Shown in pieces: positions 18,950 to 49,284 of a stretch of DNA of 59,292 nucleotides (its first letter is position 1; the number at the start of each line of letters is the position of its first letter). Under the pieces are notes generated by a model. The model was not told the DNA's origin. It saw only the letters and a program-made list of their open reading frames with translations, and made no database searches. This stretch comes from a virus (lineage: Duplodnaviria > Caudoviricetes), in IMG/VR virus record IMGVR_UViG_3300030708_002074, positions 1-59,292 of that record; one strand, written 5' to 3'. The position numbers and the translations under genes were made by a program.

Positions 18950-18957
18950 ACTTAAGT

Positions 18958-33200: not shown

Positions 33201-36200
33201 GGATTCATTCCAGCAACTTGCCCACAGCGTGTTTGTTAAGCAGCTTGGTGACGGCTCTATCCTGAAAGGACAAAATGAGTTTAACAAAAAGAAAGATGAG
33301 TTCGCAAAGCTTGATCCAACCTTAGAAGTTAAGGATGAGGAGACAGGAGAGACCCGAACAATCCCAAATGAAAAGTATCAAGAGCTAAAGGAATTCTTTG
33401 AACAGAAAGAACAACTGGCTCAGAAGATGTTTGATTCGTGGAAGGTTGCAGCCAAGATCGATCAGCCTGTTGCCACAAGAGATCGCAGCACCGAGCCTTT
33501 ACCCCTAAGTGAAAGATTCAATTTCGACTTAAACACTTCCGAGGGTAGTCCACCGATCCCTGACACTGATGCACTGCTCAAGATGCTGGGCAAAGATCTG
33601 GGACTCAAGTCGCAAGACCCAAGTCTCGATGACGATGGACGTTTGTATTCCAGTTTCAGAGCAAAAAGCAGGTCTGCTAAAGACTCTGAGTTTGACGCAT
33701 TCGATTTCAACTACACAGAATTATTCGACCAGTTCAACCTACCCGTGTTAGAGGTAGGGGATGTCGAGGTGTATGGGAAAGGCTTTATCAATAAGATAAA
33801 GAAGTTCGTTAACACTCATTCAATCGGATTGTTGCAGCCTGAAGTTCATCACTGGTTGAAGCACCGGCAGGGAATGACAAAGGGATTGAGTCAGGAGCTT
33901 ATGCTGATTCGTTCAAAACTAAAAAGCCTCACGGATAAAGTTTATCCTGATGGTGTCCCTGTTGATGAGAACGGTGTGTCACTTGTGCAGAAAGCTAGTG
34001 GTTCTACAGAAGGTGTGTTCATCTCAGATGAAGCACGGAAAAGAATTGATGACCAATACGAAGCCGACATGGTTGCGGCATGGACAGAATCACATCAAGC
34101 ATCGCTCGATGGCACCGAACCCGCCACTAAGATCAAGGCTGATTTTGATGCAGCTTTGGAAGCCGCGAAAGCTAACCAAGAACTAGAGACACAAATAGAA
34201 CTTGGTAGGAGGAGAGATCAGTTGAAAGCTGAGAGGAATGAGGCGATCCAAAGAATCGCTCAAGACTCTAAAGAACTTTCTAACGCAATAGAAAAGCTAG
34301 GTGAGTTCCGCAACAAGATGTCAGAGAAGTTGCAGGAGATTCACAAAGAGTCAGGGAAGTATGATCTTAAGATAGATCAGAACAATGACATTTACCTGAC
34401 CCGTGCATACAGGATGTTCCTAGACGTTGGCTATGCCGATGCAGTCAGGAACAGTCCTGAGTATAAGAAGGAAAGAGATGCCGCCATTGCTTACTTTGAG
34501 GGCGTTCACTTGGAGATTGAGAAGAAGATCATGATGCAGAACAACCCGCAGATGACACCGACAGAAGTCGAGAGTGCCATCAGGGATGACATGCAACGGA
34601 GACAAATCGGTAAGCGTGCGCTTGAAGCATTCATCTCTACTTACGATAGAGGGTCGAACGTGAATTACTTTGGTGCGGAGGAACAGATCAAAGCTTTGGT
34701 GGACAACCTGAAGGCTAAGAAGAATATTCCTAAAGAGCTTAGGGATATCCTTGGAGAGTTGAAGGACACTAACCTACCCGACAACTTGCTGAGAACTATA
34801 ATGGTTGTTGGCAACATGGCAGCTAATCAATCTTTCTTGAACGCTGTCGCAAAGGCGGGGCTGAAGACGGAGGATAATCCAGACGGCTGGCTCTTTACTG
34901 AAGAGCAGATTGCTGGTGTGGACAACCCATCTGACTATGCAAAACTTGTAGAAGGATCAGAGTTCAATTCTGATTTCAGTCCACTCGCAGGGCTATACGC
35001 AAAAGTAAATACAGCGAACGCATTCCGTGAGACATTCAAAAGGCACGGGACTATTGTAGCCAACCCATCGGAGCAGCTATTTGAAAATGGCTTTAAGTAT
35101 TTTAGGTGGCTGACTGGATTGTCTATGGGTCTCAAGACTATGGGTTCAATACCATTCTACTACCGGAACGCCATCGGTAACGTGTTGTTCTTTGGCCCGA
35201 TGCAGGTTGGCTACATAAATATCTTTAACGTGAAGAGCGTGGGAGACCTTGTGAATGCGGGACTCCATAAAGACTTTGCAGTAAACTTCCTTAAGGAGTC
35301 GAAGAGAAACTTCCTTGGGGACAAGGCAAAGCTAGACGAATACATTGCTAAACTTCGCGTGCTACGTTTGGTCGGTGATGAATCGCACACGAATACTTTC
35401 AAGCAGTTGATGACTGGTGAAAGGGATATTGATTCTACCCTTGAAGATTTCGAGTCCATCATCCAAGGGAAGGAAGGTGACCTTAGCTTAGAAGGTAAAG
35501 TCTCAAAGGCGATAGGCGCAACAAGCAGGGCGGTGAGTCGGAGAGGGAAGATAGTCGGAACAGACTTGGCACCGAGGATGGCTGCTGCAATGGACTCCTT
35601 CTACAAGATGTCCATGTTTGAGTTTGAACTTAAACACTTAAAGGCTGCTCAAGAACATGACAGGAAGATGAATCCTGATTCGACACTGGCAAAGCAGAGT
35701 GATGATCAACTCCAGAAAGATGCAGCGCAGAAGGTTCTCAGGACAATGCAGTCCTATTCTCAAGCACCTCCGATAGCGAGAGCGGCAAGCCGATCCGTTG
35801 CCGGTGCGCTGTATGCTCCGTTCATCAGGTTCCAAGCTGATGTGATTAGGGTAATGGTAAACACTCCTAAGATAGCATTGGAGGAAATAAACTCTGGCAA
35901 CCCCATTCTCAAAAAGAGAGGCGTGCAAAGGTTTTCTGGTTTCGTGCAAACGGCAGGGTTAGCTTCTTTAGGTTTGCCACTGTTACTTAGAGCTATCTTT
36001 GGAATAAGTGACGATGAAGATGAAGCATTGAAAGCAGCGGGGCCTGCATGGGCACGCTACAATAATCCTCTGTATTACAAGGACGATAATGGGAAGTTGC
36101 AGATGCTTAACTTCACATACACTAATCCGTTTTCACCAGTTACAGATAGCATAGCAGCTACGGCGGGTGCAGTCTTCAATCCTGATGCAACACCAGAGAG

Positions 36201-36954
36201 TGCAGCCACTACGCTCTTTAACTCTTTTCTTGTTAAGAACTTTTTGAGCGATCAGATCTTTGCGGGGGCTGCCGCTGAAGCAATTAGTGGGGAGGACATG
36301 CAAACTGGTGAGCGCGTCTTTATTGATGGCATCGACAAAGGTTTCGATAAGCACATCAAACAACTAGCTCACATTGGGAAAGAAGCGTTCGCACCAAGGA
36401 CACTTCAAAATGTAGTCAAAGCTATTAGGAATTCTGACGGTGACTTCACAGAGTATCATGACTCTCCAATGGGGCTTGTCTTAAATGAGGTCAACCCAAT
36501 CAGGGCTGCGTTTAGACCGATACCCGTCAATCCTTCAGATAAGTTCAGATCGTTTTTGTTCAAAACAGAACAACGTAGGAAACAAATCCGAGAGAAGTTC
36601 AGGCCGCTATACAAGGATGACCCACTATCGCCGGAAGATATATTTGGTATATACGATGAGGTCTACAAAGACATGGAGTCCTTGAACAAGGAGGTCATGA
36701 ACAAGTTCCAAGCCTTTGAGAAGATAGGAATACCCAAGGGTAAACTCTATGCGATGGCCCGTGGTTCAGGCGGTGGACCTAAGCTGGGCAAGCGGCGATC
36801 TCAACTGCTCCTGCTTGGCTACATGGAACGTCCTGTGCTGGAGGCTAACAAAGTGCGGATCATGCTCAGTGAAAGTCCAGAGATGCAGGAGCGTGTAAGA
36901 GTTTTTGCAGAAGCAGTTAAGAGATACCCTCGCTTTAGCAAGGTTCAGGATTGA
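24226..36954 (+). CDS. Giant (4242 aa) internal virion / polyvalent protein with two zincin-like HExxH domains
   Basis: Single ORF; no Cys seen; LLHEYFHA...QEFV (31729) and LRHELAHK...QERLA (32461); Gly-rich hydrophobic segments near residues 680-820 and near the C-terminus. Confidence 0.75.
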   Translation: MSEEPFNPLDRLNLTGPDGPLSVNKLEVTSYDDWSSGQPSQDPIQAHLGYGDYLREEYIKNKSYNEDVEVSIQSELGEALAAKGLLTNENSDAVVSQIDAYNEPTLDQQVRDMVAHTSLEQDEWHNGNAYLERNEGVKTPEEIERLTENALASVNATRNDVLQAKLDAGEISFGRFTDAQGNSFIKAGDSAMDLPLHEALRRSKAAGGGVSLSDAIGIEQVGLLKVADGMNIPRYKMIQLGEIESLVRSEIANDDNLSIQLEAIGKRMAERDYSSFDHFEEGFRKSVGSTVRTIFEPIIGTLGGSMPSGVAREKAIDQAMLDDIDSTVMRVAKKFNKNPEDVRLAIQEVAIQNAPLKVFKDKDKLALNIRDDGYGLPFVPVAVKLDDDLFEKSLAARTDLTAATKKAIIAERDFFATNHFSNISNILANSDLSKKWLDHLNAGRAAKVSDKEILFSFTSNEDNKPYLDLPIFGDLYLKGSDITRPFSTAFSTVFALSGADWAKKHLANVAEDQNNRREIAELFGGKLGIAQDLATLIPEVTVDIGATALLTRFGGKGVATKAAAVKAPLYASMTKKGVLKALTTNAFRRGVGETTEELAEKLASQKLIRSATSKTALEALEAYNKVNLKNLTVGAIGITAANRSSGATYGSVYNSMLKSGASEEEAHDRALGTGMVAGAVTGLVTGGFSYFGRGGMEDALLSGMSYRNMKTVTERIVQKAPYAKLDGVSDAVFQQAIKDSTKAVLKGNFFGKSFVKAGAEEFAEESIDEFINTFVTDAGLEQDTPFFDHLKHSLYAGTLGGILGAGAPAVNAAARRLRPDLVGDLIQDATLEQNLINDITNRLRESNSSVTADVVRDILTRDLTPDAVRTPSQEDIDAQELAQQDDSEEVKQQAQFLLEIMRSTPEDQIQEEVDAVRKQRRSRKYRSAYAHSSFGDQMAYREDLAQPVIINEKGEVSDLAGVGLTLRTAEGIDEFDYLEMGIAVEDLPRLEKLIRANPDILAMPDSEWATYDPDSGVRDFRDLDLTKDLLSSLTETEYVQLGRLRDRNKVFYAGGDTVYETMPAEAVQQAIIKSKNVENKKPTSQIESDEFFTAYHLWEIVNEESGQQEVYSRGQYLTKKEAEKAAGFKMELGGDPSVEEFQAKSKVKRVDDDGNETIVDHPLLVKKTRGEGKEKPRTPKTVTKYELVREGAVETEEVVENIPATTFKKGNKVKFVFILGDTEFEEGVVDKDYDGDGTVDVADLDGNVFGLDPEQIITGKKQATKTKEKKSADKVIGTFDTEAQAQAAAKKAEGKTFVRKVTKSDNETVSVGDTVSQATDEGGDPVIDKVHEELLDQIQQKNKRIKVRDKDGTPRFTKDEAAKKFAELLEKEESKKQKKELTAQEKFEAILNKINKEENNGSLSPDAAEIAKGKVLGKRLRELTRKNKIEEAKKMVADAISSGKPAYIYDSSTKSLREAKINEKTGKVTFSKKSRPVFVENIAGEKVFITSSRVSGKTVFHKVGEQPADPAGAGVVFRTKENFVKFLEAGLDVTDPVKNVNWAGNVKASELEALNRIVENGLPIIGAMSADSGRTFGVDTTRRNKRPFYNKMRQLVAERIYNLFPVINVRRPVNGKAIYAKTALTAYSPWEFIKTPAGQKLAAKKVRTTSLRPTNIGGVFRAIAEAVPILELDKNNKPKAHKPVAFVDENDEGVFDNDPISMKVLLEEGYSVYFPDDFVGRLNPAFRFAKIGTRQKLVDIRGVGYTGDISSVKQRKAVVGDINVEGFRKKVKFASKFLRRGTAQDVEIDDPNKRGAKTTLRQMLMDLHDTINNAFKAETYDPKDVQVTSIEETFKFRADELKELDASLDRANKRLATGTPEEQEEAARQIETVKARRDRFYENLRVDVLAEAKKIADPEIENRIATYENLLFEQRAIQERLGLAAGEKEVAGNQTQIDANYRIIEQAVFKKEAIARSEGLGVTQDPFVAQNKLQSYLKPKRKQLPLTKGNFELAARQLQVEYAQEILFYQLKLQLADPKISDVEENGAIVIKEEQIEKAINIFLKNVNPTAGANPKAKKGSDYRGLKYDAKGRVTKASKIEFAYYILNSQIDTRVEKVEKGDNYQKVFKRYFEDRILLRDGVSERDRMPSFADVGQKITDRILKQQRLRGSAEKESPFNSERATTPDEVDALNLEMDHFVEMRMGVGEIDALLEGVQMDVVDIINQDPALEQQLDALLKEGPFALSTTDFYLRLNVEEKWSELVAFSRQGNMEGNSAPIAFLQNIRKLNSPAAVKLHRALRLFNIGNLEFGNKNPFILEEQFRAFDSEQILKDEIAALEGEEIDGVVRSRDELLRFADEILDAKKYVRWLTDEVRAIETQKGRVIDDFKARAKASSLHKIIKAYSSHKSFYSGSAVENAIDRAVAIDRNRKVAILLGLKEGRNDTERILNALKKIAVDDSLSESQQNAARILLMKPTYVEFILDQGGGSYAGRTRIKDDGRIEVVLDIAGYNGRGLVDVLLHEYFHASLLDSFSIDINSTSKPQRDARFAISQKIREVRDKVGSNVTTELTDGLKNIQEFVSNMMTNTKFQSYFRGQVGTPEFKKVVQNLFKVLDPQRSNLSKEFKDAFYDVVDLQGYEESTPITLSGLRQEAVNAAVADIEESDAFNASFNAVTGKEGDIDTDTASPLELEDIAVRAAELKQLAGIKIPSEINVAFSTLTGGRVANFDPATNTITFDANNAAIGTLNRGMDSLRAAQMVSKILRHELAHKSAKSALTPEMIQRVIDGSSLQDFKNDIDNYYGKGTPEAEAALARLNDPSKAAREKEVLVQERLADHVERAIGGFSSQQYEAFLMSNPSLLEVVSFYFKSFINKFIRALGGGVGQLTADERIAVNRMLVELRGIELGYRAPSPVFNPDATPQESLNRFLVVATGVDAPEFIEDQGATNLLPQVGADSQIDQPRATASTMATPRELDGVDQEYINLLATANVSPANLQKAQDLFETQAARITLDSFQQLAHSVFVKQLGDGSILKGQNEFNKKKDEFAKLDPTLEVKDEETGETRTIPNEKYQELKEFFEQKEQLAQKMFDSWKVAAKIDQPVATRDRSTEPLPLSERFNFDLNTSEGSPPIPDTDALLKMLGKDLGLKSQDPSLDDDGRLYSSFRAKSRSAKDSEFDAFDFNYTELFDQFNLPVLEVGDVEVYGKGFINKIKKFVNTHSIGLLQPEVHHWLKHRQGMTKGLSQELMLIRSKLKSLTDKVYPDGVPVDENGVSLVQKASGSTEGVFISDEARKRIDDQYEADMVAAWTESHQASLDGTEPATKIKADFDAALEAAKANQELETQIELGRRRDQLKAERNEAIQRIAQDSKELSNAIEKLGEFRNKMSEKLQEIHKESGKYDLKIDQNNDIYLTRAYRMFLDVGYADAVRNSPEYKKERDAAIAYFEGVHLEIEKKIMMQNNPQMTPTEVESAIRDDMQRRQIGKRALEAFISTYDRGSNVNYFGAEEQIKALVDNLKAKKNIPKELRDILGELKDTNLPDNLLRTIMVVGNMAANQSFLNAVAKAGLKTEDNPDGWLFTEEQIAGVDNPSDYAKLVEGSEFNSDFSPLAGLYAKVNTANAFRETFKRHGTIVANPSEQLFENGFKYFRWLTGLSMGLKTMGSIPFYYRNAIGNVLFFGPMQVGYINIFNVKSVGDLVNAGLHKDFAVNFLKESKRNFLGDKAKLDEYIAKLRVLRLVGDESHTNTFKQLMTGERDIDSTLEDFESIIQGKEGDLSLEGKVSKAIGATSRAVSRRGKIVGTDLAPRMAAAMDSFYKMSMFEFELKHLKAAQEHDRKMNPDSTLAKQSDDQLQKDAAQKVLRTMQSYSQAPPIARAASRSVAGALYAPFIRFQADVIRVMVNTPKIALEEINSGNPILKKRGVQRFSGFVQTAGLASLGLPLLLRAIFGISDDEDEALKAAGPAWARYNNPLYYKDDNGKLQMLNFTYTNPFSPVTDSIAATAGAVFNPDATPESAATTLFNSFLVKNFLSDQIFAGAAAEAISGEDMQTGERVFIDGIDKGFDKHIKQLAHIGKEAFAPRTLQNVVKAIRNSDGDFTEYHDSPMGLVLNEVNPIRAAFRPIPVNPSDKFRSFLFKTEQRRKQIREKFRPLYKDDPLSPEDIFGIYDEVYKDMESLNKEVMNKFQAFEKIGIPKGKLYAMARGSGGGPKLGKRRSQLLLLGYMERPVLEANKVRIMLSESPEMQERVRVFAEAVKRYPRFSKVQD

Positions 36955-37600: not shown

Positions 37601-37875
37601 GCCATGTAGTCCTGCATCCCTTCAATATTGAAGAGTTCGTTGTTAGTCACCTTGTGGACGGCGTTGATAAGCGGGAGGTAAGCCACAAGTTTGCCGAGCA
37701 CGGCAGACGCTTCGATGAACGTCTTGAATGATTCAATGTCATTCAAGTGCATCGTGCGGATTGACCCCACGGAGGTGAATACACAGATTGACCAGCGGCA
37801 CCGTGCGCTCTCTTCGCGCACGGCGGTGACAGTGATCGTGGTGTCCTTGTCGAGTTTGATTTGTTCTTTGTTCAT
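37597..37875 (-). CDS. Hypothetical protein
   Basis: 92 aa, overlap-coupled on both sides. Confidence 0.6.
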   Translation of the reverse strand: MNKEQIKLDKDTTITVTAVREESARCRWSICVFTSVGSIRTMHLNDIESFKTFIEASAVLGKLVAYLPLINAVHKVTNNELFNIEGMQDYMA

Positions 37876-38357
37876 TATACTGTTTCGGTAGATTTTACTT
37901 TAGCTATGTGGTCAGCGAGGATCAGCGACTCGTTCAAGTGCCTCTCGTATGCTTCAAGCGAATCCAACTTCTCAACAATCCTGTCGAACAGATCCACCAG
38001 TGTCACGGCAGACACGGTGACCTCACCCTCCAGCCGAAGCGGAGGTCGTTGGTCCTCATGCTTGTGCCAGTGGATCGAATCCATCCGGTAGGTGAACGTG
38101 CATTCCCACGGCTCATACGAATCGTCACCGCAGTAGTAAGGCGGCTTGTCATACTCCAGCGTCCACTTTCTGGTGGTGCCGAGGAAGGCGGCATGCGATT
38201 CAAATATCTTGCCGATGACCTTCCTCGCCTCGTCACGCATTTGATGGAAGGAGTAGCTTCCAGAGGTAGGGTAGTCCTTTTCAGGAAGCATCCCCTCTTT
38301 TTCGACCACGGTGCGGTAAGCCTTGGTTCGCTTGTTGTATCTTTGTGTTTTGCTCAT
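37875..38357 (-). CDS. Hypothetical early protein
   Basis: Start moved to ATG 38357 (MSKTQRY), after element B and a CAA-rich leader. Confidence 0.65.
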   Translation of the reverse strand: MSKTQRYNKRTKAYRTVVEKEGMLPEKDYPTSGSYSFHQMRDEARKVIGKIFESHAAFLGTTRKWTLEYDKPPYYCGDDSYEPWECTFTYRMDSIHWHKHEDQRPPLRLEGEVTVSAVTLVDLFDRIVEKLDSLEAYERHLNESLILADHIAKVKSTETV

Positions 38358-38392
38358 TTGCTTATTTGATTTGGTTTGTTGTTGTTTTGTTT

Positions 38393-38436
38393 GGTTGCCG
38401 CTTTTCTCAGGCAAGCGGCCAGCCGTCAACTCTTTT
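38393..38436 (-). promoter_or_regulatory. Element B copy 1 (promoter-hairpin)
   Basis: Minus strand TTGACG-17-GAAAAG; stem GCCGCTT/AAGCGGC around loop GCCTGAGAA. Confidence 0.75.
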
Positions 38437-38628
38437 CTAAAGTTTACTGACTAACTTCTGCAACTCCTCCACTTGGGCAAGTGCTTCATGGAGGACCGCA
38501 TCCTTGTCAACCTTGGGTTGATGCAACCCGATCAGCTTGTCGTGCAAGCTGTCGAGTTCCTGCTTGATGACCATCTGTGCAGACTTGCGTTGCATAGCTG
38601 GGAGATATTTCCTTACGTCGATAATCAT
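38437..38628 (-). CDS. Hypothetical helical protein
   Basis: Start moved to ATG 38628 (MIIDVRK), 4 nt after the upstream stop. Confidence 0.55.
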   Translation of the reverse strand: MIIDVRKYLPAMQRKSAQMVIKQELDSLHDKLIGLHQPKVDKDAVLHEALAQVEELQKLVSKL

Positions 38629-38632
38629 TTTT

Positions 38633-38803
38633 CTACTTAGGTGAGGTTGCCGCATCTTGTGCAGCCCACCGAGTTGACCACGCTCTCCGTGAGCCGTTGG
38701 TTGTTCGCCAGAACTTGCCATCTTCAAAGATGGAATAAGTCCCATGCCGCCACGGTTCTGTCGGACTCCATGAGAACTTAACTATTCTTCGTGTGGTAAT
38801 CAT
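38633..38803 (-). CDS. Hypothetical 56-aa Trp-rich protein (not in ORF track)
   Basis: MITTRRIVKFSWSPTEPWRHGTYSIFEDGKFWRTTNGSRRAWSTRWAAQDAATSPK fills the gap; CAA-rich leader. Confidence 0.5.
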   Translation of the reverse strand: MITTRRIVKFSWSPTEPWRHGTYSIFEDGKFWRTTNGSRRAWSTRWAAQDAATSPK

Positions 38804-38820
38804 TGTTCTGTTGGTTCGGG

Positions 38821-39180
38821 TTAGTGGAATTCAGGATTAGCGGGGTCCATGATGTGGTTAGCATACCGCTCCGCATCCTCCTCCTCCCATGCGGGAGAAC
38901 CGTAGACAGGATAATCGCGGGTCCAATACTTAAGTTGGATCACACCACGCGCAATGATCTTGTCGCAGAGTGCTTGTGCTTTCTCCTCTTCACTCGATTC
39001 AAAGCCCACATCCATCAGGCAGAAGCGTTCACCACGCTCTGTTGTAGCCTTGATGAATATCTTCTTTCCCCACACAGCGCCACGCGGGTTCGTCATGTCG
39101 GCGTGCTCATGGTGGAAGCACCGGATGTATTCATCCTCGAAAGGATATGCGTTACTGATTTTGATTTTGTTTTTGTTCAT
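38821..39180 (-). CDS. Hypothetical early protein
   Basis: Start moved to ATG 39180 (MNKNKIK), after element B. Confidence 0.65.
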   Translation of the reverse strand: MNKNKIKISNAYPFEDEYIRCFHHEHADMTNPRGAVWGKKIFIKATTERGERFCLMDVGFESSEEEKAQALCDKIIARGVIQLKYWTRDYPVYGSPAWEEEDAERYANHIMDPANPEFH

Positions 39181-39212
39181 TACCTTATTTGTTTTTAGTT
39201 TGTTGGTTTTAA

Positions 39213-39250
39213 GGTTGCCCCTTTTGTCAGGCAAGGGGCCAGCCTTCAGG
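39213..39250 (-). promoter_or_regulatory. Element B copy 2
   Basis: Stem GCCCCTT/AAGGGGC, loop GCCTGACAA; the -35 position is degenerate (CTGAAG). Confidence 0.7.
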
Positions 39251-39252
39251 TT

Positions 39253-40587
39253 CTATTCGTGAAGATCACTGTGATTAGCAATCTTGCGGTTGATGCTACG
39301 CATCACATGCTCCTCGATGGAGTTGGCAGCGACCAGCACTTGTTGCAGGGCATCTGACTTAGCACCGTTGCGGTGAATCCTGCCGAGAACCTGCTGGTAA
39401 TCCTTGCTGTTGAATGTAGGGCAGATGAAGGAGACACGCGGGCGATTGCCTTGGGTGTCATGCAACGATATGCCGGTTCCCCCCGCACTGATGTTACATA
39501 TGATGCAGTGCGACTCGTCACGTTGGAACGCATCGATTGCAGCCTGACGTTCATGCGGTGTTTGTGAGCCGTCAATCTTTCCACAATGGAGACGGGCGGT
39601 GAGCGCGTCCACCGTATCAGAAAAGTTCACAAACAAGACAACGCTACTTCCTGCGGCCATTGCATTCTCTGCCATGTCAGCCAGATCGACTGCCTTGTAA
39701 CTCTCAGCAAGCTGTCGAGCACGTAGCAGGTTCACCAGAACATACTCACTGTCAGTCACCGTGCCCTTTTGAATGAACTCATCGATGATTTTAGGAGTCA
39801 GGCCAATGTCGTTGTAAGCCTTCAGAATCTTAGCGTTGGATCTGAAGTTCACAGGAGTAGTGAAGACACGGTTGTTCCTGAATGAATCAGGGAAATCCTC
39901 AATAGCGAGGCGGTGTGTGCTCACCCCATACATCTTGGAACGGAGGAGTGGTAGCTTGGTGCGATCAGTCATCTTGTAGCTTCCCCACTGATCTTGCGTT
40001 ACTCCATGCTGCTTCATGAAAGACCAGAAGTGATACAGCGTGCCCTTGCTATGCTTGTTAGAATGAAGACCAAGGATGTAACCCAGTGCCTTCATCTCAC
40101 TGGCATCCTCGCAAGGTGTGCCCGACATGCAATGAATGCGGTAACCCTGATCAACAAGTTGGATAGCCATCTTGCTGTTGGTGGTGTTCATGCCTTTGCA
40201 CTTGTGAACCTCATCGATCAGGACGAGTGTGTCAGTTGGGAGTTCCTGTTCGTTCCAGACAAAGGAGACAAACTTCTTACCAGTCTTGGTGACCTTGGTA
40301 ACCTTGTCCAAATAAGGAGTGTTACCTGTCTTTAGTCTCTCCAAGTTAAGAATGAAGGTAGGCTTGATGCCAACTTCCTCCATCTCTCGCTCCCATGACG
40401 GGAGCACTGCCTTCGGCGCGATGATTGCCACCGGCTTCCCATAGTCACGCGCAAGGTGACAAGCTACGATTGTCTTGCCCGTTCCCATGTGAGAGGAGTC
40501 GAGCGTGTTACCCCCAGAGAGGAGTCTCTTCAGGAAGAAGAGCACAGCTTGGACTTGCGGCGGGAATAATGTTTTTGGTATTCTCAT
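39253..40587 (-). CDS. SF2 (SNF2/ResIII-like) helicase
   Basis: HMGTGKT, IAPK, LIDEVH, MSGTP, AGGTGISL, QVLGRIHR; start moved to ATG 40587. Confidence 0.9.
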   Translation of the reverse strand: MRIPKTLFPPQVQAVLFFLKRLLSGGNTLDSSHMGTGKTIVACHLARDYGKPVAIIAPKAVLPSWEREMEEVGIKPTFILNLERLKTGNTPYLDKVTKVTKTGKKFVSFVWNEQELPTDTLVLIDEVHKCKGMNTTNSKMAIQLVDQGYRIHCMSGTPCEDASEMKALGYILGLHSNKHSKGTLYHFWSFMKQHGVTQDQWGSYKMTDRTKLPLLRSKMYGVSTHRLAIEDFPDSFRNNRVFTTPVNFRSNAKILKAYNDIGLTPKIIDEFIQKGTVTDSEYVLVNLLRARQLAESYKAVDLADMAENAMAAGSSVVLFVNFSDTVDALTARLHCGKIDGSQTPHERQAAIDAFQRDESHCIICNISAGGTGISLHDTQGNRPRVSFICPTFNSKDYQQVLGRIHRNGAKSDALQQVLVAANSIEEHVMRSINRKIANHSDLHE

Positions 40588-40613
40588 TTTTTGTTTTGTT
40601 GTTTTGTTCTTAA

Positions 40614-40657
40614 GGGTGCCCCTTTTATCAGGCAAGGGGCCAGCCGTCAATTCTTTT
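40614..40657 (-). promoter_or_regulatory. Element B copy 3
   Basis: AAAAGAA-TTGACG-17-TAAAAG with TGn; stem GCCCCTT/AAGGGGC, loop GCCTGATAA. Confidence 0.8.
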
Positions 40658-40662
40658 CGCGA

Positions 40663-41199
40663 TTAGTAACCCTCCAACTGAGGAGGGTGCTTTGCGTCCC
40701 ATTCTTCCATAGAGCAACGAGCCGACTCATACAGTTCACGATCTACCCTCTGAAGGATAGAGTAGTGAACTGCGTCGAGCAGTGAACGGAAGCACCCGCA
40801 ATCATCGTCAGGGTTGACGGGTTCCGGTGGTTCCGGTGGTTCCCAACGGGAGACGTAGCCGCCCCCTTCGTAAGTCCCGCGAACCCAAACAGGATAGCGT
40901 TTGGTTTCCGGTCCCCCGATCCGCTTGCGTGGTGGCGGGATCTCCGCTTCCACTTGGTAGTAGACAACCTCACCATCCGTCAGGCAATGCTCTGCACCCG
41001 TTCCGGTGTAAGGGATAAGCTCCCAGCCTCCACCTAATGTGTCCCGTTGGGCGGATGGTAGCGAGGAAAGATTGCACTTTGTCTTGAGCAATTCAGAAGC
41101 AACGAACACATCCCGTTCGTCTGCGGGGATGCAGGTTACTTCTCCATCTTCCACCTCATGGAAGGCGGGGAGTTCAATAGCATGTATTGGAGTTATCAT
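40663..41199 (-). CDS. Hypothetical early protein
   Basis: 178 aa, lying between element B copies. Confidence 0.65.
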   Translation of the reverse strand: MITPIHAIELPAFHEVEDGEVTCIPADERDVFVASELLKTKCNLSSLPSAQRDTLGGGWELIPYTGTGAEHCLTDGEVVYYQVEAEIPPPRKRIGGPETKRYPVWVRGTYEGGGYVSRWEPPEPPEPVNPDDDCGCFRSLLDAVHYSILQRVDRELYESARCSMEEWDAKHPPQLEGY

Positions 41200-41228
41200 C
41201 TTATTCTGGTTTGTTGTTCTGTTCTTAA

Positions 41229-41264
41229 GGTTGCCCCTGTTTGTCAGGCACAGGGGCTGAAGCC
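41229..41264 (-). promoter_or_regulatory. Element B copy 4
   Basis: Stem GCCCCTGT/ACAGGGGC, loop GCCTGACAA; no -35 match. Confidence 0.7.
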
Positions 41265-41276
41265 TTTGGGTTGTTT

Positions 41277-42830
41277 TCAGCCAAGGTCAACTGGAAGCCA
41301 AGTGCCCCAAGGATAGAGCTTCTCTCCCTGCCAGCCGTAGTCCAGCCAGACAACCTTGTAATCATACGGTTCCTCATCAGGCATCTGACTCCAATCAGTC
41401 TCACCATCCGTGAAGAAGAACAATGCACTGATCTCCTGATCAAGTTGCTCCTTCTCGATATAGGTGAACACCTTGTCCAACTCAGTCCACCCGTTCCCGA
41501 GGCTGGTGAGCTTATCAGGAAATGGATCACCGTAGTTAAGGTCCACAACCTCACCGACCTCATCGTCAATGGGGATCAGGATCACTCTTGAGAACTCCTT
41601 GTTAAGAGCAAACTCTTGAGCACGGGCGATCTGATCTTTCAACTCAGACTCACCAATGGAGCCAGACATATCGAATGCGAATGCAACCGTGCCAAGGGTT
41701 GGCTTGTCCCGTGCATCCCCAAGGCATCCCGTTGTGACATACGTATCATGATCGTATGGTGAACCCCACTTGGGATCGGTCATGTCATCCAGCACATCGG
41801 ACAGCAGTTCATCCCAAGGAACGGGATCACCGTGAACCTCATGCGCTGCTTCAGCGGCCCTTGCTTCCTTTAGATCTTTCTCAGATAAGAAAGTCTCACC
41901 CTTCATCTCAGCAATGGAGGAGCTGAGAACTACGGAGTTGATATTCTCTCGCTCCTGCTTCTCGACCTCTTCCAGTGTGGAGCCTTCAGGAATCTCAGGG
42001 GGGAGAACATCACCACCAAGTGAAGAGTCACCATGATCTGATTGGCTGGCACCGATGGAGTTGGCAATGGATTGTCCATCGTCACCGTCCTGCTGGTCGT
42101 CACCACCATCTTGCTGGTCGTCACCACCATCTTGCTGGTCGTCACCGTCCTGCTGGTCATCGTCACCACCATCTTGCTGGTCGTCACCGTCCTGCTGGTC
42201 ATCGTCACTGCCACCTTGCTGGTCGTCATCCTTGGGAGGATCAGGACTCTTCATGAGCAGTTGGTAGATGCCCCTGATTGTCATGTTCCCATACCCACTG
42301 ATCACTTGCTCACGGGGGTCCATGTTCTGCTTCTTGCCTTCAGCAAGGAGAGCATCATGGCAGGGTGTGAACTTACCATGCTCATCCTCAAACTCTATGA
42401 TCGGGAATGGAGTGAAGCCGATCTTAGGTTCAAGGCTAAGGTTCCGCTGGTGGATAATCCAGTTGTGATGGAAGTCCATAGCACGATTCGCATTCGCTCT
42501 GTCCTTCAGATCCGCAAACCTGATAGAGTCCATGCTGAATTTGTGGGAACCTTCATGAACCCAGAGGAATGAAACATTCCCTTCAGGATCATCCAATGCC
42601 TCCAGCCGCGACATCCCCTTGGGGTTGACCAGCACTGAGGTGTTACTGATAGCAGCGAAGTGCCCACATATCTCAGGATAGGGGCACCAATACCACTTCA
42701 TGCCAATGAGACCATCATAGATCTCAGGGGCATACCGCTTGCACCTACGCAACCCAGCAGCAGTCAGGTCATTACCCCTGACTGATGGTGAGAAACGCTC
42801 AAGCACATCTTCTATTTTCTTCTTAGCCAT
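41277..42830 (-). CDS. Metallopeptidase-vWA protein (DUF2201-like)
   Basis: WVHEGSH zincin motif with NRAMD; acidic linker; vWA MIDAS AFDMSGS...GWT...FFTDG. Start ATG 42830. Confidence 0.85.
   Translation of the reverse strand: MAKKKIEDVLERFSPSVRGNDLTAAGLRRCKRYAPEIYDGLIGMKWYWCPYPEICGHFAAISNTSVLVNPKGMSRLEALDDPEGNVSFLWVHEGSHKFSMDSIRFADLKDRANANRAMDFHHNWIIHQRNLSLEPKIGFTPFPIIEFEDEHGKFTPCHDALLAEGKKQNMDPREQVISGYGNMTIRGIYQLLMKSPDPPKDDDQQGGSDDDQQDGDDQQDGGDDDQQDGDDQQDGGDDQQDGGDDQQDGDDGQSIANSIGASQSDHGDSSLGGDVLPPEIPEGSTLEEVEKQERENINSVVLSSSIAEMKGETFLSEKDLKEARAAEAAHEVHGDPVPWDELLSDVLDDMTDPKWGSPYDHDTYVTTGCLGDARDKPTLGTVAFAFDMSGSIGESELKDQIARAQEFALNKEFSRVILIPIDDEVGEVVDLNYGDPFPDKLTSLGNGWTELDKVFTYIEKEQLDQEISALFFFTDGETDWSQMPDEEPYDYKVVWLDYGWQGEKLYPWGTWLPVDLG
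42077..42229 (-). repeat. Intragenic 18/21/24-nt tandem repeat encoding (D)DDQQDG(G) x7
   Basis: Seven TGCTGGTC cores between 42091 and about 42225. Confidence 0.9.
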
Positions 42831-42866
42831 TATGTTGTTTTGTTGTTTTTGCGTTAACACTCGGGA

Positions 42867-42886
42867 GGGTTAACGGGCGTTAACCC
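42867..42886. repeat. Element A palindrome copy 1
   Basis: GGGTTAACGGGCGTTAACCC; contains the TAA stop of 42880-43875. Confidence 0.95.
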
Positions 42887-43875
42887 CACGACATCATGTC
42901 GTCCTTTGCCTCCTCGATAATTGCAGCACCCTGCACGATGAGATCGATTGCCTCTTCCCTTTCAGGCGGTGCGGCATTCTTCATGTCCACATGCTGAATG
43001 CTACTTGCAGCCGTGTTGAACACCTTGCTGAGTTTATCCGCTACAACGTCTGAGATATTGTAGCGTGCCATAAGATCCTTGGCACCAGTGAGCGCATCTT
43101 GAATCTCATCCACCCTTTTCTGAGTCACCCTGCCATTCGGCTCGGTGTGGGACTTGTGGAGTGACTTGGCATTGTCCCGCATGGTCTTCACAAGATACTC
43201 CACCGCATTCAGCATGTTGTTATCTTGCAGCGTCTTGTTGTGATGCACTTGGGCAGCCGTCTTGTTCTTCACCTCATCAGCAATGGCCGTGAGGAATCCA
43301 CTACGTCCAACCTCTTCAGGCTCCGTGTAGAAGATAGCCTCGATACGGAACCAGTTCTTGAGATCATCTACATCAGGGTAGTTCATCTCCCTTGCGTTCA
43401 TACCGAGGCGTGCTTTCGATCTTGCGATCATCGTATCGTATTCCAACTCAAGGTCAGGACGAACCCTGTTGATCTCAGCATTGTGCTTGTCAATCCAATG
43501 CTCCATTGCAGCACGCTCTGAAGCAGCGATGCTGTAACCACCAGCAGCACTTGGCATGAGCCTCCCGATGAAGCCCGCCGCCTTTGCCGCTTCCCCAAGG
43601 TGATCCTTGGGATCGAAGATGGAGTTGAATGATCGTCCGATCTTGGCGATCTTACCAAGGGCACACTTGGGTTCCTCTTGTTTTTTGTAAGGAACAGGTT
43701 TGAACATCGTGTCCCTACAACGGGCACTGGTAGAACCCGTGAGTTCCTTGATCGTGGACGAGGCGTTCTTCAGATTCTTACTATTCTTGGACCATGTTGA
43801 TTTGACCTTCGTCTCAACACGGAGGGTGGAATGGATGGAATTTGGAGCCGACAATTTGTTGAATGATTGTTTCAT
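42880..43875 (-). CDS. DUF3150-like protein (third component of an AAA-vWA module)
   Basis: EYDTMIARSKARLG...NYPDVDDLKNWF pattern; position between the AAA+ and vWA genes. Confidence 0.55.
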   Translation of the reverse strand: MKQSFNKLSAPNSIHSTLRVETKVKSTWSKNSKNLKNASSTIKELTGSTSARCRDTMFKPVPYKKQEEPKCALGKIAKIGRSFNSIFDPKDHLGEAAKAAGFIGRLMPSAAGGYSIAASERAAMEHWIDKHNAEINRVRPDLELEYDTMIARSKARLGMNAREMNYPDVDDLKNWFRIEAIFYTEPEEVGRSGFLTAIADEVKNKTAAQVHHNKTLQDNNMLNAVEYLVKTMRDNAKSLHKSHTEPNGRVTQKRVDEIQDALTGAKDLMARYNISDVVADKLSKVFNTAASSIQHVDMKNAAPPEREEAIDLIVQGAAIIEEAKDDMMSWG

Positions 43876-43904
43876 TTCTCTTTTTACTTTTGATTAAACC
43901 GAAA

Positions 43905-43943
43905 CCGCTTTTGTCAGGCAAGCGGACAGCCGTCAATTCTTTT
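43905..43943 (-). promoter_or_regulatory. Element B copy 5
   Basis: TTGACG-17-CAAAAG; stem CCGCTT/AAGCGG, loop GCCTGACAA. Confidence 0.75.
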
Positions 43944-43957
43944 CTAAAAAAGTAGAT

Positions 43958-43992
43958 AGGGGGAAGGTTAACGGGCGTTAACCCTCCCCCCT
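43958..43992. repeat. Element A copy 2, extended into a longer GC hairpin (possible terminator)
   Basis: AGGGGGAAGGTTAAC-GGGC-GTTAACCCTCCCCCCT; a T6 run follows 6 nt later on the minus strand. Confidence 0.85.
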
Positions 43993-43996
43993 GATG

Positions 43997-45295
43997 CTAC
44001 TTGAGGGAGGAGGCAGTCGCGCACTGAGCAAGATCCACTCCCTTGTATTGGCACTGATCGTAAAGATACTCAGCCACTCCCTTGTGCAAGGCACCAAGGA
44101 GATCGTGAGTGAACCATCCAGTCAGTTGCTTGTTGTGCAAGGCAACCTCCAATCCCTGATCAGAGATGTCCTGCTCCTGACAGAGCAGATCAAGCGCACC
44201 GATACAGAATCGATACTGTTTGTCAGGACTGCTAGGCAAGGCAGTGAGGTCACCGGCCTTGAACTTCTTCACATCTTCAATGATGTGACGAGTGGTTCCG
44301 ATCCACTGAGCACACTTCTCACCCTGCTCTCTTCCGAGGTAGCCAATCAGCATTGCCTCGAAAGCGTCAGAGCGGTAGTCGCCCCAAGGTAACATGGCAG
44401 CACGGGCGGCACGCTCATACGTTCTCCCCGTTGCAGCTTGTTGTCCACGGTAGGACTCAATCTCCTTGAGAGGATCATGCTTCTTACTACGCTTCTCAAA
44501 CTCCAGCCACTGGGTAACCTTGCTGGTCGCACACTTGTGACCGGCAGGATCTTCAATGACTGCTTTGACAGCAAGCACATCCTTCATCCTGAAGGGAAGT
44601 GACTCAAGCATGGACTCCAGACTGAGTGAAGGATCGTTCTTCAGATCAGCAAGGAGAACGTCCAGATCCGGTTTGCTGGTAGTAACCAGCGCCCTGTTCT
44701 GGAATGGAAGCGGAACGATCTTGGAGTTGGCACCATCATAAGGACGGTTACCCGTTCCAACAATCAGCATGTTGTCAGCACACTTGAACCCTCCCAGCAT
44801 CGGACCTTCCCATTCAGTCCCGACTCTGATCGGCATCATGTCATCATCAAGAACAACCTTACCTGCTTTGTTCCTTTTGTATTTAACAACCTCGCCGTCA
44901 GGATGAAACATATCCTGAAACTGATTGTATGAATGAGCCGATCCGTTTCCGATCTCCTCAATATTGTAGATGCCACGGTCACTGCCATGCTCATCGTAGA
45001 GCGGGACATCAACCCTGTTGGGAGCACCCTTGAGAAGTGGACCACCGGGATCTGCTGGGTTGGGGTAGATCTGCCCCCCATACACGGAGTAAGGTTGCTC
45101 CGTGAAGTTAGTCCGTTTGATCCATACCGCTCCAATCACTTGAGCCAGTTTCTTAACCAGCCAACTCTTACCGGAGCCAGCAGCTCCAAGCTGAATGAGG
45201 AAGGGATCTTTCTGGACCATGCACGCAAGTGCAAGGATCAGCATTGTGTGGAGGGACACATCGTTGCCCATACGGGCTTCGTCTTGTGGTTTCAT
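43997..45295 (-). CDS. MoxR-like AAA+ ATPase
   Basis: Walker A GAAGSGKS, Walker B variant IYNIEE, sensor-1 VGTGN, Arg finger PFQNR, ATGRTYE. Confidence 0.85.
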   Translation of the reverse strand: MKPQDEARMGNDVSLHTMLILALACMVQKDPFLIQLGAAGSGKSWLVKKLAQVIGAVWIKRTNFTEQPYSVYGGQIYPNPADPGGPLLKGAPNRVDVPLYDEHGSDRGIYNIEEIGNGSAHSYNQFQDMFHPDGEVVKYKRNKAGKVVLDDDMMPIRVGTEWEGPMLGGFKCADNMLIVGTGNRPYDGANSKIVPLPFQNRALVTTSKPDLDVLLADLKNDPSLSLESMLESLPFRMKDVLAVKAVIEDPAGHKCATSKVTQWLEFEKRSKKHDPLKEIESYRGQQAATGRTYERAARAAMLPWGDYRSDAFEAMLIGYLGREQGEKCAQWIGTTRHIIEDVKKFKAGDLTALPSSPDKQYRFCIGALDLLCQEQDISDQGLEVALHNKQLTGWFTHDLLGALHKGVAEYLYDQCQYKGVDLAQCATASSLK

Positions 45296-45326
45296 TATTA
45301 CGTTTTGTTTTGTTGTTGTTTAGGTT

Positions 45327-45370
45327 GGGTGCCCCTTTTGTCAGGCAAGGGGCCAGCCGTCAATTCTTTT
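45327..45370 (-). promoter_or_regulatory. Element B copy 6
   Basis: AAAAGAA-TTGACG-17-CAAAAG; stem GCCCCTT/AAGGGGC, loop GCCTGACAA. Confidence 0.8.
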
Positions 45371-45387
45371 CGAGAGGGGTTGGTGTA

Positions 45388-45407
45388 GGGTTAACGGGCG
45401 TTAACCT
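45388..45407. repeat. Element A copy 3
   Basis: GGGTTAACGGGCGTTAACCT; overlaps the TAG stop of the upstream gene. Confidence 0.95.
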
Positions 45408-46083
45408 ATTCGGTAAATCCTTTTGTTCCTTTGCGAATGAGGTGAGCAAGATGCTGCTGGTCTTTCTCTTCATCGGTTAGAGCCACAGCAGTGTTGATCA
45501 TGTAGTCATTCAGTATCTCCTCCCAATCAGGACCATAGTGCATCCACCTGCTGGGAAATGGGTTGATGTCATCCAACCTCTGCTTCAAGCGGCTTTCGTC
45601 TACCTGCACATCACACCCATTGATGAATGCAAAGGGTAGGCAGGTAGCTTTGCTGCCGTCCTCTTCATTATTGCCAAAGTCCATTGGGAGAAGGTTCGGT
45701 TTGTAGAACGGTTCATAGGACTCAGTTTGATATCTCTTGAAGATGGCAGTGTGCTTTGCCAGATCGTCATCAAGTTCCTTGTGCATACACTCATGTGCTT
45801 CAATCAACTTGTTCCCCAGACTGTGAGTCTCATCATACGATTCGATCTGCTTCTCGACCTCTTCATCAATCAGCAGATCTATATGCTCAAGATCCCACTC
45901 CGTTGCCCAACTAAAACCCGCCGCCAAGATGGCGAGGATATAGGACAGGGCGATGCCCGTGAGTCCAGCGTAATAGTCCCCATGAAAAATGGGGATCGCC
46001 CAGATGCAGGCTGATGCAATCGACATTACACATGCCGAACGTAACAGCCACATTTTCACTGTGAGTTTAGTTCTCAGTTTCAT
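45406..46083 (-). CDS. Hypothetical two-TM membrane protein
   Basis: Two hydrophobic N-terminal segments followed by an acidic domain; start ATG 46083. Confidence 0.65.
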   Translation of the reverse strand: MKLRTKLTVKMWLLRSACVMSIASACIWAIPIFHGDYYAGLTGIALSYILAILAAGFSWATEWDLEHIDLLIDEEVEKQIESYDETHSLGNKLIEAHECMHKELDDDLAKHTAIFKRYQTESYEPFYKPNLLPMDFGNNEEDGSKATCLPFAFINGCDVQVDESRLKQRLDDINPFPSRWMHYGPDWEEILNDYMINTAVALTDEEKDQQHLAHLIRKGTKGFTE

Positions 46084-46087
46084 TATC

Positions 46088-46180
46088 TCGTTTTGTGTTT
46101 TCGTTTTAACATGCTTGCACTTTGCAAACACAATACCGCCTAGGGTTAACGGGTGTTAACCCTAAGCGGAATGTATCTAC
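46088..46180. repeat. Long repeat copy 1, containing element A copy 4 (46143-46162)
   Basis: 93 bp, 91/93 identical to 46792-46884. Confidence 0.95.
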
Positions 46181-46615: not shown

Positions 46616-46790
46616 ACGGGTTGAAAGGCAGTCCCATCTTGCGACCAAGATGGTAACTGATCTCGTCAATCTTTCGCGACAGTTGCTGCCGCGTAGCCGG
46701 TGTGAGGACCGGCCCACTATCAGCCAGCCTCATCTTATAGTTTGCAAGGAGTGCTTTCAGCTCTTCCTTGCTCATATCTTCCAGTTTCAT
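46614..46790 (-). CDS. Hypothetical 58-aa helical-hairpin protein
   Basis: MKLEDMSKEELKALL...GPVLTPATRQQLSRKI, loosely LEM/SAP-like; start ATG 46790. Confidence 0.6.
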   Translation of the reverse strand: MKLEDMSKEELKALLANYKMRLADSGPVLTPATRQQLSRKIDEISYHLGRKMGLPFNP

Positions 46791-46791
46791 T

Positions 46792-46884
46792 TCGTTTTGT
46801 GTTTTCGTTTTAACATGCTTGCACTTTGCAAACACAATACCGCCTAGGGTTAACGGGTGTTAACCCTAGGCAGAATGTATCTAC
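46792..46884. repeat. Long repeat copy 2, containing element A copy 6 (46847-46866)
   Basis: Near-identical to 46088-46180. Confidence 0.95.
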
Positions 46885-47767: not shown

Positions 47768-47787
47768 TATATCGTTTTGTTCTTTTT

Positions 47788-47886
47788 GTTTTAACATGCT
47801 TGCCTTTGCAAACACAATACCGCCTAGGGTTAACGGGTGTTAACCCTAAGCGGAATGTATCGGAAAGGGTTAACGGGCGTTAACCT
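47788..47886. repeat. Long repeat copy 3 (element A copy 8, 47827-47846) plus element A copy 9 (47867-47886)
   Basis: About 74 bp matching copy 1 with a 1-nt deletion; a second palindrome 20 nt away supplies the TAA stop of 47870-48550. Confidence 0.95.
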
Positions 47887-48808: not shown

Positions 48809-48926
48809 ATGAGTCAGTTAGCCCATAACTTCAAACAAGATGTGTAATGCAGACTTGCACGCCACGGGGGGGTATGCGCTTTTTGTGCGCGTGCGCGTGT
48901 ACATATATACCTGTCTGTGAAAAAAT

Positions 48927-48954: not shown

Positions 48955-48964
48955 GCACGCGACC

Positions 48965-49275: not shown

Positions 49276-49284
49276 ACCACGCTC

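Follow-up and report, generated by a model that had tools for sequence, protein, structure and literature searches.

A promoter-like repeat built around a short stem-loop in an uncultured marine phage, and its likeness to promoter-early stem-loop cassettes

Promoter-early stem-loop (PeSL) cassettes have been described in the T4-type phages RB49/phi1, PST and nt-1 (Arbiol et al. 2010, PMC2839356; Comeau et al. 2014, PMC4122927). In the first of these accounts, the stop codon of the upstream gene lies in an AT-rich region, −35 and −10 boxes of sigma70-like type are present, and a stem-loop, whose stem may contain G-T pairs, is mostly found between −35 and −10 or overlapping the −10 (PMC2839356). 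Promoter and stem-loop terminator activities were both measured, and a terminator or attenuator role on upstream transcription was backed by a lacZ read-through test (PMC2839356). Some ORFans are flanked by two PeSLs in one phage where a relative has a single PeSL (PMC2839356), and other T4-like phages are described as carrying PeSLs with lineage-specific stems and promoter variants (PMC4122927). Element B, the subject of this report, is a unit of ~52 nt found six times on the minus strand of an uncultured phage genome. The window analyzed is the whole of IMG/VR virus record IMGVR_UViG_3300030708_002074 (G000), which is 59,292 nt long, is estimated to be 98% complete, and is present in DNA runs labelled marine metagenome. 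Element B is judged, with somewhat better than even confidence, to be a composite cassette of promoter and stem-loop, akin to the PeSLs and transcribed by the polymerase of the host; what is said of its function is drawn from its anatomy, from comparison between copies and relatives, and from the PeSL precedent.

Lambdoid nut sites combine a boxA with a boxB, and the boxB of P22 has a GACAA pentaloop. The stems of the hairpin promoters of phage N4 span 5–7 bp. The hairpins of these N4 early promoters form on the template strand, with a 3-base loop and a stem of at most 7 bp; they are read by a T7-like virion polymerase, and need gyrase and single-strand-binding protein (SSB) (PMC4496689). The middle promoters of the crAss-like phage phi14:2 are described as a phage-specific extended motif with −35-like and −10-like blocks, read by the host RNA polymerase with its primary sigma factor (bioRxiv 10.1101/2020.03.07.982082).

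All six copies of Element B are intergenic, and each stands upstream of a minus-strand ATG, with 29–39 nt between the end of the stem and the ATG and 35–46 nt between the end of the loop and the ATG. A covariance model (R1) built from 15 family members returns exactly six matches in the window, with E values from 1e-16 to 3e-9 and nothing further up to E = 1, which agrees with the six copies listed in an earlier note on this DNA. Of the starts given there, five (38393, 39213, 40614, 41229 and 45327) lie 4 nt outside the stems and the sixth (43905) coincides with a 6-bp stem. A 27-nt degenerate pattern finds five matches on the reverse strand, none on the forward strand and none with a reversed-pattern control; the sixth copy, B4, which has an 8-bp stem, is missed by it. 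The window has 11 occurrences of the string GCCTGANAA, where shuffles give an expectation of 3.05, and six of the eight on the minus strand lie at 38404-45346.

The unit begins with GAAAAGAATTGACGG, followed after 3–4 nt by a stem of 6–8 bp around the loop GCCTGA(C/T/G)AA, in which the variable base is C in four copies, T in one and G in one, and then by CA(A/C)CC and a CA-rich leader. Read as a linear sequence, the same unit consists of an A-rich block, a −35-like TTGACGG, a 17-nt spacer ending in TG, the −10-like hexamer NAAAAG, GC-A-CC, and a leader of 29–39 nt that lacks a Shine-Dalgarno (SD) sequence. The 5′ arm of the stem lies within the spacer, and the 3′ arm takes in the last three bases of the −10-like hexamer and runs into the discriminator; in all six copies the stem brackets the −10-like box. 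TTGACG stands exactly 17 nt before NAAAAG in B1, B3, B5 and B6, the four copies for which this spacing had been reported, and GAAAAGAA precedes TTGACG in four of the six. The linear parts that are conserved follow sigma70-type promoter geometry: the A-tract is proximal, the TG falls at the extended −10 position, the −35 matches the sigma70 consensus at five of six positions, and the −10-like hexamer has A at its second position and G instead of T at its last. The terms UP element and extended −10, like the consensus sequences used here, are those in general use. The stop codon of the upstream gene lies in or beside the A-rich block at B1 (TAG), B2 (TAG), B3 (TAA) and B4 (TGA).

Following the minus strand, B6 (45320-45371) has TTGACG at 45363-45358, a hairpin at 45331-45353 (GCCCCTT/GCCTGACAA/AAGGGGC) and CAAAAG at 45340-45335, and leads through its CA-rich leader to the ATG at 45295 of a gene for a 432-aa ATPase-like protein (43997-45295; phrog_1297). 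B5 (43893-43944) has TTGACG at 43936-43931, CAAAAG at 43913-43908 and, at 43905-43925, the weakest hairpin of the six, with 6 bp (CCGCTT/AAGCGG); it precedes the ATG at 43875 of a 331-aa open reading frame (ORF; 42880-43875). It directly follows a hairpin and T-run (43958-43991) belonging to a second repeat family, Element A, which is described further below. B4 (41223-41277) carries the block GAAAACAACCCAAAGG without TTGACG and an 8-bp hairpin at 41233-41257 (GCCCCTGT/ACAGGGGC), and stands before the ATG at 41199 of a 178-aa ORF (40663-41199). B3 (40607-40658) has TTGACG at 40650-40645, a hairpin at 40618-40640 with loop GCCTGATAA and TAAAAG at 40627-40622, and precedes the ATG at 40587 of a gene for a 444-aa SNF2-like helicase (39253-40587). 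B2 (39206-39257) carries the block GAATAGAACCTGAAGG and a hairpin at 39217-39239, before the ATG at 39180 of a 119-aa ORF (38821-39180). B1 (38386-38437) has TTGACG at 38429-38424, a hairpin at 38397-38419 (GCCGCTT/GCCTGAGAA/AAGCGGC), in which a C-G pair is replaced by a compensated G-C pair, and GAAAAG at 38406-38401, and precedes the ATG at 38357 of a 160-aa ORF (37875-38357).

B2 and B4 do lack TTGACG and keep their hairpins, as the earlier note observed, but this is not a simple loss. The two copies share a variant upstream block (GAATAGAACCTGAAGG and GAAAACAACCCAAAGG) that recurs in the related records G003, G004 and G005, and on this comparison the block is a variant rather than random decay.

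Two observations concern pieces of the unit elsewhere in the window. Leaders of 30–45 nt that are nearly all C/A, (CAA)n-like and free of an SD sequence precede the ATGs at 38357, 39180, 40587, 41199, 45295, 46557, 47237 and 48550, and GGAG or GGGG does stand before a small number of genes elsewhere, among them the DNA polymerase at 15283 and an ORF at 17260. The composition of these leaders suggests SD-independent translation for this block of genes. In addition, the loop sequence GCCTGACAA occurs at 18921-18929 on the minus strand, between the terminase ATG at 18961 and the minus-strand block, with no stem and no TTGACG. This stemless copy is kept only in G001 and G005, which are close to the window in that region, and is missed by the covariance model.

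Relatives were found by pattern and protein scans of IMG/VR, and seven records (G001–G007) were taken whole. Pattern scans of viral contigs returned 25, at least 119, 2 and 32 stretches, and the true relatives among the matches listed are G001–G007 only. A metagenome pattern scan with a gap of N{12,16}, where the common type needs 11, returned three stretches, of which one (locus L168, G001-like) is a true relative. Protein-seeded locus searches returned close kin only. One further locus, L033, encodes a helicase 54% identical to that of the window and has an SD sequence instead of an Element B unit. The relatives span a wide range of divergence. Identity to the giant protein of G000, encoded by a 4242-aa ORF, is 87% in G001, 42–63% in G005, 30–57% in pieces in G003 and G004, and 24–31% in G006 and G007; G002, a fragment of 19 kb, shows no match to it.

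The Element B family comprises 25 members in 7 records at E <= 4e-9, and every related record has members. Throughout the family the order is an A-tract, TTGACGG or a near copy, GCC or ACC 10–11 nt later, usually TG, YAAAG or NAAAAG 16–19 nt after the −35, and GC-A-CC. The −35 is exactly TTGACG in 15 members, one base off in four and degenerate in six, and TG precedes the A-rich box in 21 of the 25. The block GAAAAGAATTGACGG is kept exactly in G003, G004, G006 and G007, whose orthologous proteins are 23–31% identical; one copy in G004 (T2) has it with a 5-nt insert and with TGGACG as its box. An Element B-type unit stands upstream of the ATPase orthologue in every lineage. The ATPases of G003/G004 and G007 are 28% and 23% identical to that of G000, and the one of G006, which has no direct blastp match to G000, is 86% identical to that of G007. 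This conservation of A-tract, TTGACGG and an A-rich box ~17 nt downstream strengthens the label "promoter-like" that the earlier note had given to the units.

The hairpins are more variable. Copies in close kin carry the same stems as the window, yet the elements upstream of the G000 and G001 ATPases differ in stem and loop, although the two proteins are 96% identical. In G003 and G004 one hairpin reads GCTCATC-GCCATGTAAAG-GATGAGC and a second GCTTCT-CACCGTTCAAAGA-AGGAGC, the latter with a G-U pair. G001 and the metagenome locus L168 have GCTCATC-GCCGCTCTAAAG-GATGGGC, also with a G-U pair, and the hairpins of G006 and G007 are GCCGCC-CGCCTGTAAAGT-GGCGGC and GCCGCC-CGCCAGCAAAGT-GGCGGC. The bracketing hairpin is mismatched in one family member and absent in two, G001 47586 and G005 1956, which keep TCGACG, GCC and CAAAG. 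Loop lengths across the family are 9, 11, 12 and 13 nt, and G001 carries three types together, with GCCTGACAA, GCCGCTCTAAAG and the hairpin-less GCCTGTCACAAAG. The 9-nt loop, said to be near-invariant, is so within G000 and its closest kin, but other relatives have loops of 11–13 nt with other sequences. Likewise, the proposal that the hairpin is the more conserved part of the unit fails in the wider family, where the linear motifs are the deeply conserved ones. Since deep relatives keep the upstream block and the A-rich box while stems and loops are replaced, the "invariant loop" is best read as promoter sequence, namely TG and a weak −10. The differing loops and the mixture in G001 fit loose recognition of the kind shown by an RNA polymerase, and not one loop-specific binder.

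In two distant relatives the A-tract and TTGAC module also occurs in other promoters, at 9040-9320 and 14020-14075 in G006 (L162) and at 18930-19010 in G007 (L165). Among these instances are tandem module copies at 9095-9121 of G006 and TTGACA-17-CATCCT before a 499/516-aa gene; CCTGAA(A/T)C repeats are abundant in the leaders of these genomes.

Support for the stem comes from comparing the copies with one another. Eight stem variants occur in 13 elements, seven of them without mismatch and one, the 8-bp reading of B5, with a single mismatch; the stems listed earlier are right, and those that differ do pair. The compensated forms are GCCCCTT/AAGGGGC, GCCGCTT/AAGCGGC, GCCCCTGT/ACAGGGGC, GCTCATC/GATGAGC, GCTCATC/GATGGGC, GCTTCT/AGGAGC and GCCGCC/GGCGGC, and at five of the seven pair positions both partners differ between variants with the pairing kept. 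G-T wobbles lie on the sense (non-template) strand in G001 T2′ and G004 T3, and a C-A mismatch is found in the B2-type copy of G005. In the model-fitted alignment A4, 80.3% of the cells pair against 70.6% in shuffles, and the covariation score, at 0.285, exceeds both the 0.156 of shuffles and all six slid registers (0 of 500 shuffles reach the observed value in either case); both figures are approximate, as variants with longer loops have their 3′ arms out of register in A4. Shuffles of single elements for stem length are weak (p 0.004–0.40 for the 12 bracketed elements; p 0.37–0.56 for T6, which has no hairpin, and for the G005 copy with the mismatch), which is why the comparison has to carry the argument. 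The six window hairpins are the predicted minimum-free-energy structure both as RNA, with energies of −7.2 to −14.8 kcal/mol, and as single-stranded DNA, where the energies are −5.7 to −9.1 kcal/mol (z −2.0 to −3.2), and the RNA folds show a 9-nt open loop. As far as these comparisons go, the stem appears to be selected for pairing alone.

Units of this kind also mark the borders of a cassette that comes and goes. In the window, B4 is the upstream and B3 the downstream border of the cassette with the 178-aa gene. This gene is lacking in G001, where a single unit at 49046-49116 aligns to both B3 and B4. In the cassette of G003, ~700 nt long, a 49-aa ORF and then a homologue of the 178-aa gene stand between a B4-type unit and a second one; at its place G004 has a single unit at 38876-38941. 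On alignment, the same cassette is thus present or absent in two lineage pairs (G000/G001 and G003/G004), with borders within the units. Contigs from four marine DNA runs, placed at 80% likeness, diverge from the window at 38383, 38389, 39177, 39203, 40690, 43952, 43960 and 45407, among other positions, and one marine contig skips 40703-41198. Divergence at the units is a weak hint of mosaic borders, because metagenome contigs were placed at this level of likeness and the units are themselves repeats.

Element B resembles the PeSLs, as these are described, in several respects. Both are intergenic and extend from the stop codon of one gene to the start of the next, with an A/T-rich stretch followed by a −35 of sigma70-like type in between; both have a stem-loop between −35 and −10 or over the −10, with G-T pairs allowed; both occur in many copies of the same orientation in a region of small ORFs of unknown function; and in both a cassette flanked by two units is replaced by a single unit in a relative. 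They also differ. The −10 of Element B is non-canonical (NAAAAG or YAAAG), whereas that of PeSLs is given as near-consensus. Its loop is larger (9–13 nt) and contains the −10, and stop and start codons are placed alike but the leader is CA-rich and has no SD sequence. The phage itself is not T4-like, with 59 kb, a 4242-aa ORF, and a terminase without a match in cultured phages.

On the favored reading, the host RNA polymerase, in its sigma70-type form, would use Element B as a promoter whose −10 region is enclosed by a short stem-loop, the whole being set between the upstream stop codon and the next leader. Transcription would start a few bases past the hairpin, leaving the hairpin out of the cassette's own mRNA, and the loop would be conserved as promoter sequence, with the stem needing pairing alone. 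With such a start, the hairpin would be found only in RNA coming from upstream, which would explain the constant loop, the pairing-only stem and the mixed loop types together. On these upstream transcripts the stem-loop might act as an attenuator, a pause site or a stabilizer of 3′ ends, roles that have been put forward, and in part tested, for PeSL cassettes. Because the −10 is without its usual T at the last position, the units may depend on a phage factor and act as delayed (middle) promoters, or may rely on the strong −35, the A-tract and the TG. The ~50-nt repeats could in addition serve as crossover points for the gain, loss and swap of "element + ORF" cassettes. That the polymerase would be the host's is indicated by a site at 48927(+), at which the same A-tract and TTGAC module is combined with a near-consensus −10 (TTGACA-16-AATAAT, 11 of 12 matches). 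Moreover, 40 ORFs were scanned against Pfam, and 20 of the 40 also against PHROGs; the majority have no known family, and none was recognized as a phage RNA polymerase or a sigma factor, which leaves the host enzyme. The middle promoters of phi14:2 are similar in that an extended motif lies upstream of non-early genes. In that account, however, the word "hairpin" does not appear in the text and no stem-loop is described, and phi14:2 has a proven virion RNA polymerase, of which none is evident in G000.

If the favored reading holds, PeSL-type cassettes, so far a feature of T4-type myoviruses, would extend to an unrelated lineage of uncultured marine phages. Units bordering cassettes that come and go would support the idea that conserved regulatory linkers drive modular shuffling, and Element B would offer a handle for annotating transcription units where most scanned ORFs have no known family. 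The design would be an unusual one, with a very strong and deeply conserved A-tract and −35, a T-less −10 within a loop, and a CA-rich leader without an SD sequence.

Several points weigh against this reading. The −10-like hexamers (CAAAAG, GAAAAG and TAAAAG, with G for T) are poor even though they stand at 17 nt with TG upstream, a sigma70 consensus scan listed none of the six units, and two of the six window copies are without a recognizable −35. No T-run follows the Element B hairpin on either strand, so it is not a classical intrinsic terminator; the attenuator role would be carried over from PeSLs; and since an Element A hairpin already lies upstream of B5 and of B6, a second attenuator there looks redundant. 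The 15-nt block that is identical across phages at 23–31% protein identity goes beyond what a −35 normally needs, which makes a dedicated factor possible. Among the runs listed as containing G000 there is no RNA run from which a start site could be read, and the register of alignment A4 and the weak single-element shuffles, given above, count here as well. Finally, PeSLs enter this comparison through descriptions in text.

Among the other explanations, the one that survives best, although it is rated improbable, places the structure at the DNA level. The inverted repeat would extrude as a hairpin or cruciform, driven by negative supercoiling or by a phage or host SSB, and would either offer the weak −10 single-stranded on the non-template strand or disrupt the −35/−10 geometry until supercoiling relaxes, as a timing switch. 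The likeness to N4, as described, is considerable, with an inverted repeat centered near −10/−11, a conserved loop on a partly variable, pairing-only stem, and several copies per genome. The position of the stem around the −10-like box, the compensating changes and the predicted folding of the single DNA strand all fit such a structure, as does a −10 that looks too weak to be self-sufficient. The two G-T wobbles on the sense strand fit it too, but the C-A mismatch of the G005 copy lies on the same strand, so that this argument stands at two against one. N4 shows that small promoter hairpins can extrude in vivo, and the N4 hairpin, placed between the −35 and −10 of rrnB P1, shut this sigma70 promoter down in dependence on gyrase (PMC4496689). 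That it abolished activity instead of helping it speaks against a pre-melted −10, and makes a DNA-level role in Element B more likely inhibitory than activating. Loops of 9–13 nt would also be far costlier to extrude than the 3-base purine loop of N4, and a sigma70-type −35 lies 17 nt upstream in Element B. The units G001 47586 and G005 1956 keep −35, GCC and CAAAG without any bracketing hairpin, sequence-level searches found no N4-type or other T7-like polymerase, and PeSLs, in the published descriptions, share the anatomy without needing such a mechanism. Slightly less probable again is a distinct class of host-polymerase promoter whose mechanism includes the hairpin itself, in which a stem-loop on the non-template strand would hold a T-less, non-canonical −10 in its loop, either pre-melted for sigma or shut until supercoiling or a phage SSB changes. 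If this were true, a deep-branching group of marine phages would time its middle genes by a protein-free switch.

An equally doubtful proposal is that the units are promoters for an apparatus specified by the phage, such as an unrecognized RNA polymerase, a sigma-like factor or an activator, that reads GAAAAGAATTGACGG. In one variant, transcription would start at or before the hairpin, which would then sit at the 5′ end of the mRNA and protect it. The exact conservation of the 15-nt block between such distant phages and the non-canonical −10 speak for a dedicated reader; a novel factor could hide among the many ORFs without a known family, and the layout of hairpin, CA-rich leader and ATG is also found after several Element A copies. 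On the other hand, the 40 scanned ORFs gave no match to a polymerase or sigma family, and even G001, at 87% identity, does not share the lone DYDGD motif of the 4242-aa protein. The constant distance of ~17 nt from TTGACG to the A-rich box fits sigma70 geometry, and the near-consensus site at 48927 points to the host enzyme.

The earlier note also proposed an RNA signal in read-through transcripts, which the comparisons do not support, and of the explanations that were given weight this is now the least probable. A phage protein would bind the hairpin through the loop GCCUGA(N)AA, as at a nut/boxB-like antitermination site or a translational operator, the candidate binder being a basic 79-aa early protein (48965-49204). 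Antitermination would be plausible in an operon that crosses terminator-like Element A hairpins several times, as this one does; the 79-aa protein is very basic and repeat-rich and lies behind a near-consensus promoter; and the stems covary around a loop that is constant within G000, with G-U wobbles on the sense strand. A small GC-rich stem, an A-rich loop and a small basic early protein nearby recall the lambdoid sites as well, and CUGACAAA resembles the boxB of P22. In the predicted folds, however, the loop is a 9-nt open one and no closed pentaloop forms. No boxA-like partner is seen, nor a second conserved single-stranded box besides the −35 block, and Rfam gives no match in the window at the gathering threshold. 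There are six sites, one per gene, each overlapping the −35-like box that is the best-conserved part in deep relatives, and a sigma70-type start would put the hairpin upstream of +1. The proposal is further weakened by the 11–13 nt loops of other sequence in relatives and by the three loop types mixed in G001.

The remaining candidates were rejected: an intrinsic terminator is not listed by the terminator scan and has no T-run on either strand, a sigma54 or sigma28 promoter does not fit the spacing when the units are compared by eye with the consensus sequences, and an alternative −10 (AAGAAT in the A-rich block), with which the RNA would begin at the hairpin, has no consistent −35 upstream.

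Element A, the second repeat family of this region, has nine copies on the minus strand between 42862 and 48619, with the core GGTTAAC-RCCC-GTTAACC and variable paired extensions. Four of them have 15-pair stems and T-rich tails and are terminator-like. The copy before B5 (43958-43991, minus strand) is one with a 15-pair hairpin, the core GGTTAAC-GCCC-GTTAACC and a T-rich tail, and together with B5 it would form a terminator-then-promoter junction; the copy before B6 (45383-45415, minus strand) is the core hairpin alone, with no T-run. Element A copies elsewhere are followed by a similar CA-rich leader and ATG. Three lie within ~96-nt repeats (46085-46180, 46789-46884 and 47769-47864), and G006 and G007 have an element of the same design with another core, CTTAGTGC-NNNN-GCACTAAG. 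Between the genes of B5 and B4, behind an Element A hairpin, lies a minus-strand gene for a 527-aa VWA-like (DUF2201) protein (41277-42860). It contains six to seven 21-nt tandem repeats at 42062-42228, and one metagenome contig skips 63 nt there, which indicates that the repeat number varies between populations.

Near-consensus promoters of sigma70 type are found at 48927(+) and 49276(−). Within 48900-49290 these promoters face each other: 48927(+) would drive the gene of the 79-aa very basic protein, which has YY-x-x-N-R repeats, and 49276(−) and 49242(−) would read antisense through this gene into the minus-strand operon. This arrangement may be an early switch.

The phage has no close cultured relative by the searches made. 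Neither megablast of window positions 38000-46000 nor a tblastn search of cultured phages with the terminase found anything, and the matches of the DNA polymerase in cultured phages are all below 60% identity. The recognizable genes include the large terminase (18961-20748, ATG 18961), an amidase and, on the minus strand at 11–17 kb, a family A DNA polymerase and primase-like and PD-(D/E)XK genes; a tRNA scan of the window found none.

The 4242-aa ORF (24226-36954, plus strand) follows the terminase and two ORFs of 617 and 374 aa without a family match, and homologues of 4166–4693 aa are found in all full-length relatives. It has no sequence match in Pfam, PHROGs or the PDB, apart from two chance-level PDB matches (E 0.17 and 0.68) unrelated to polymerases. 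A HMMER search of 1.84 billion representatives found six proteins, none of them named, and a word-index search found two. It was rejected as a virion RNA polymerase, as its single DYDGD (residue 1232) is absent from all relatives including G001 and no polymerase matches it at sequence level. Two HExxH motifs near residues 2500 and 2750 are kept in most relatives and suggest that this giant and possibly virion-borne protein has several domains, one of them metallopeptidase-like.

Two further repeats lie outside this region. Six repeats of ~136 nt, spaced 207–225 nt apart, occupy 348-1575 in an ORF (1-1926) that runs off the start of the window; their probable product is a row of tandem domains in a structural protein. 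Related GC-rich hairpins with a minus-strand T-run are found at 15077-15120 and 49912-49955, with the plus-strand flank AGGCACAAAAAACCCC common to both, and by their sequence features these are classical intrinsic terminators.

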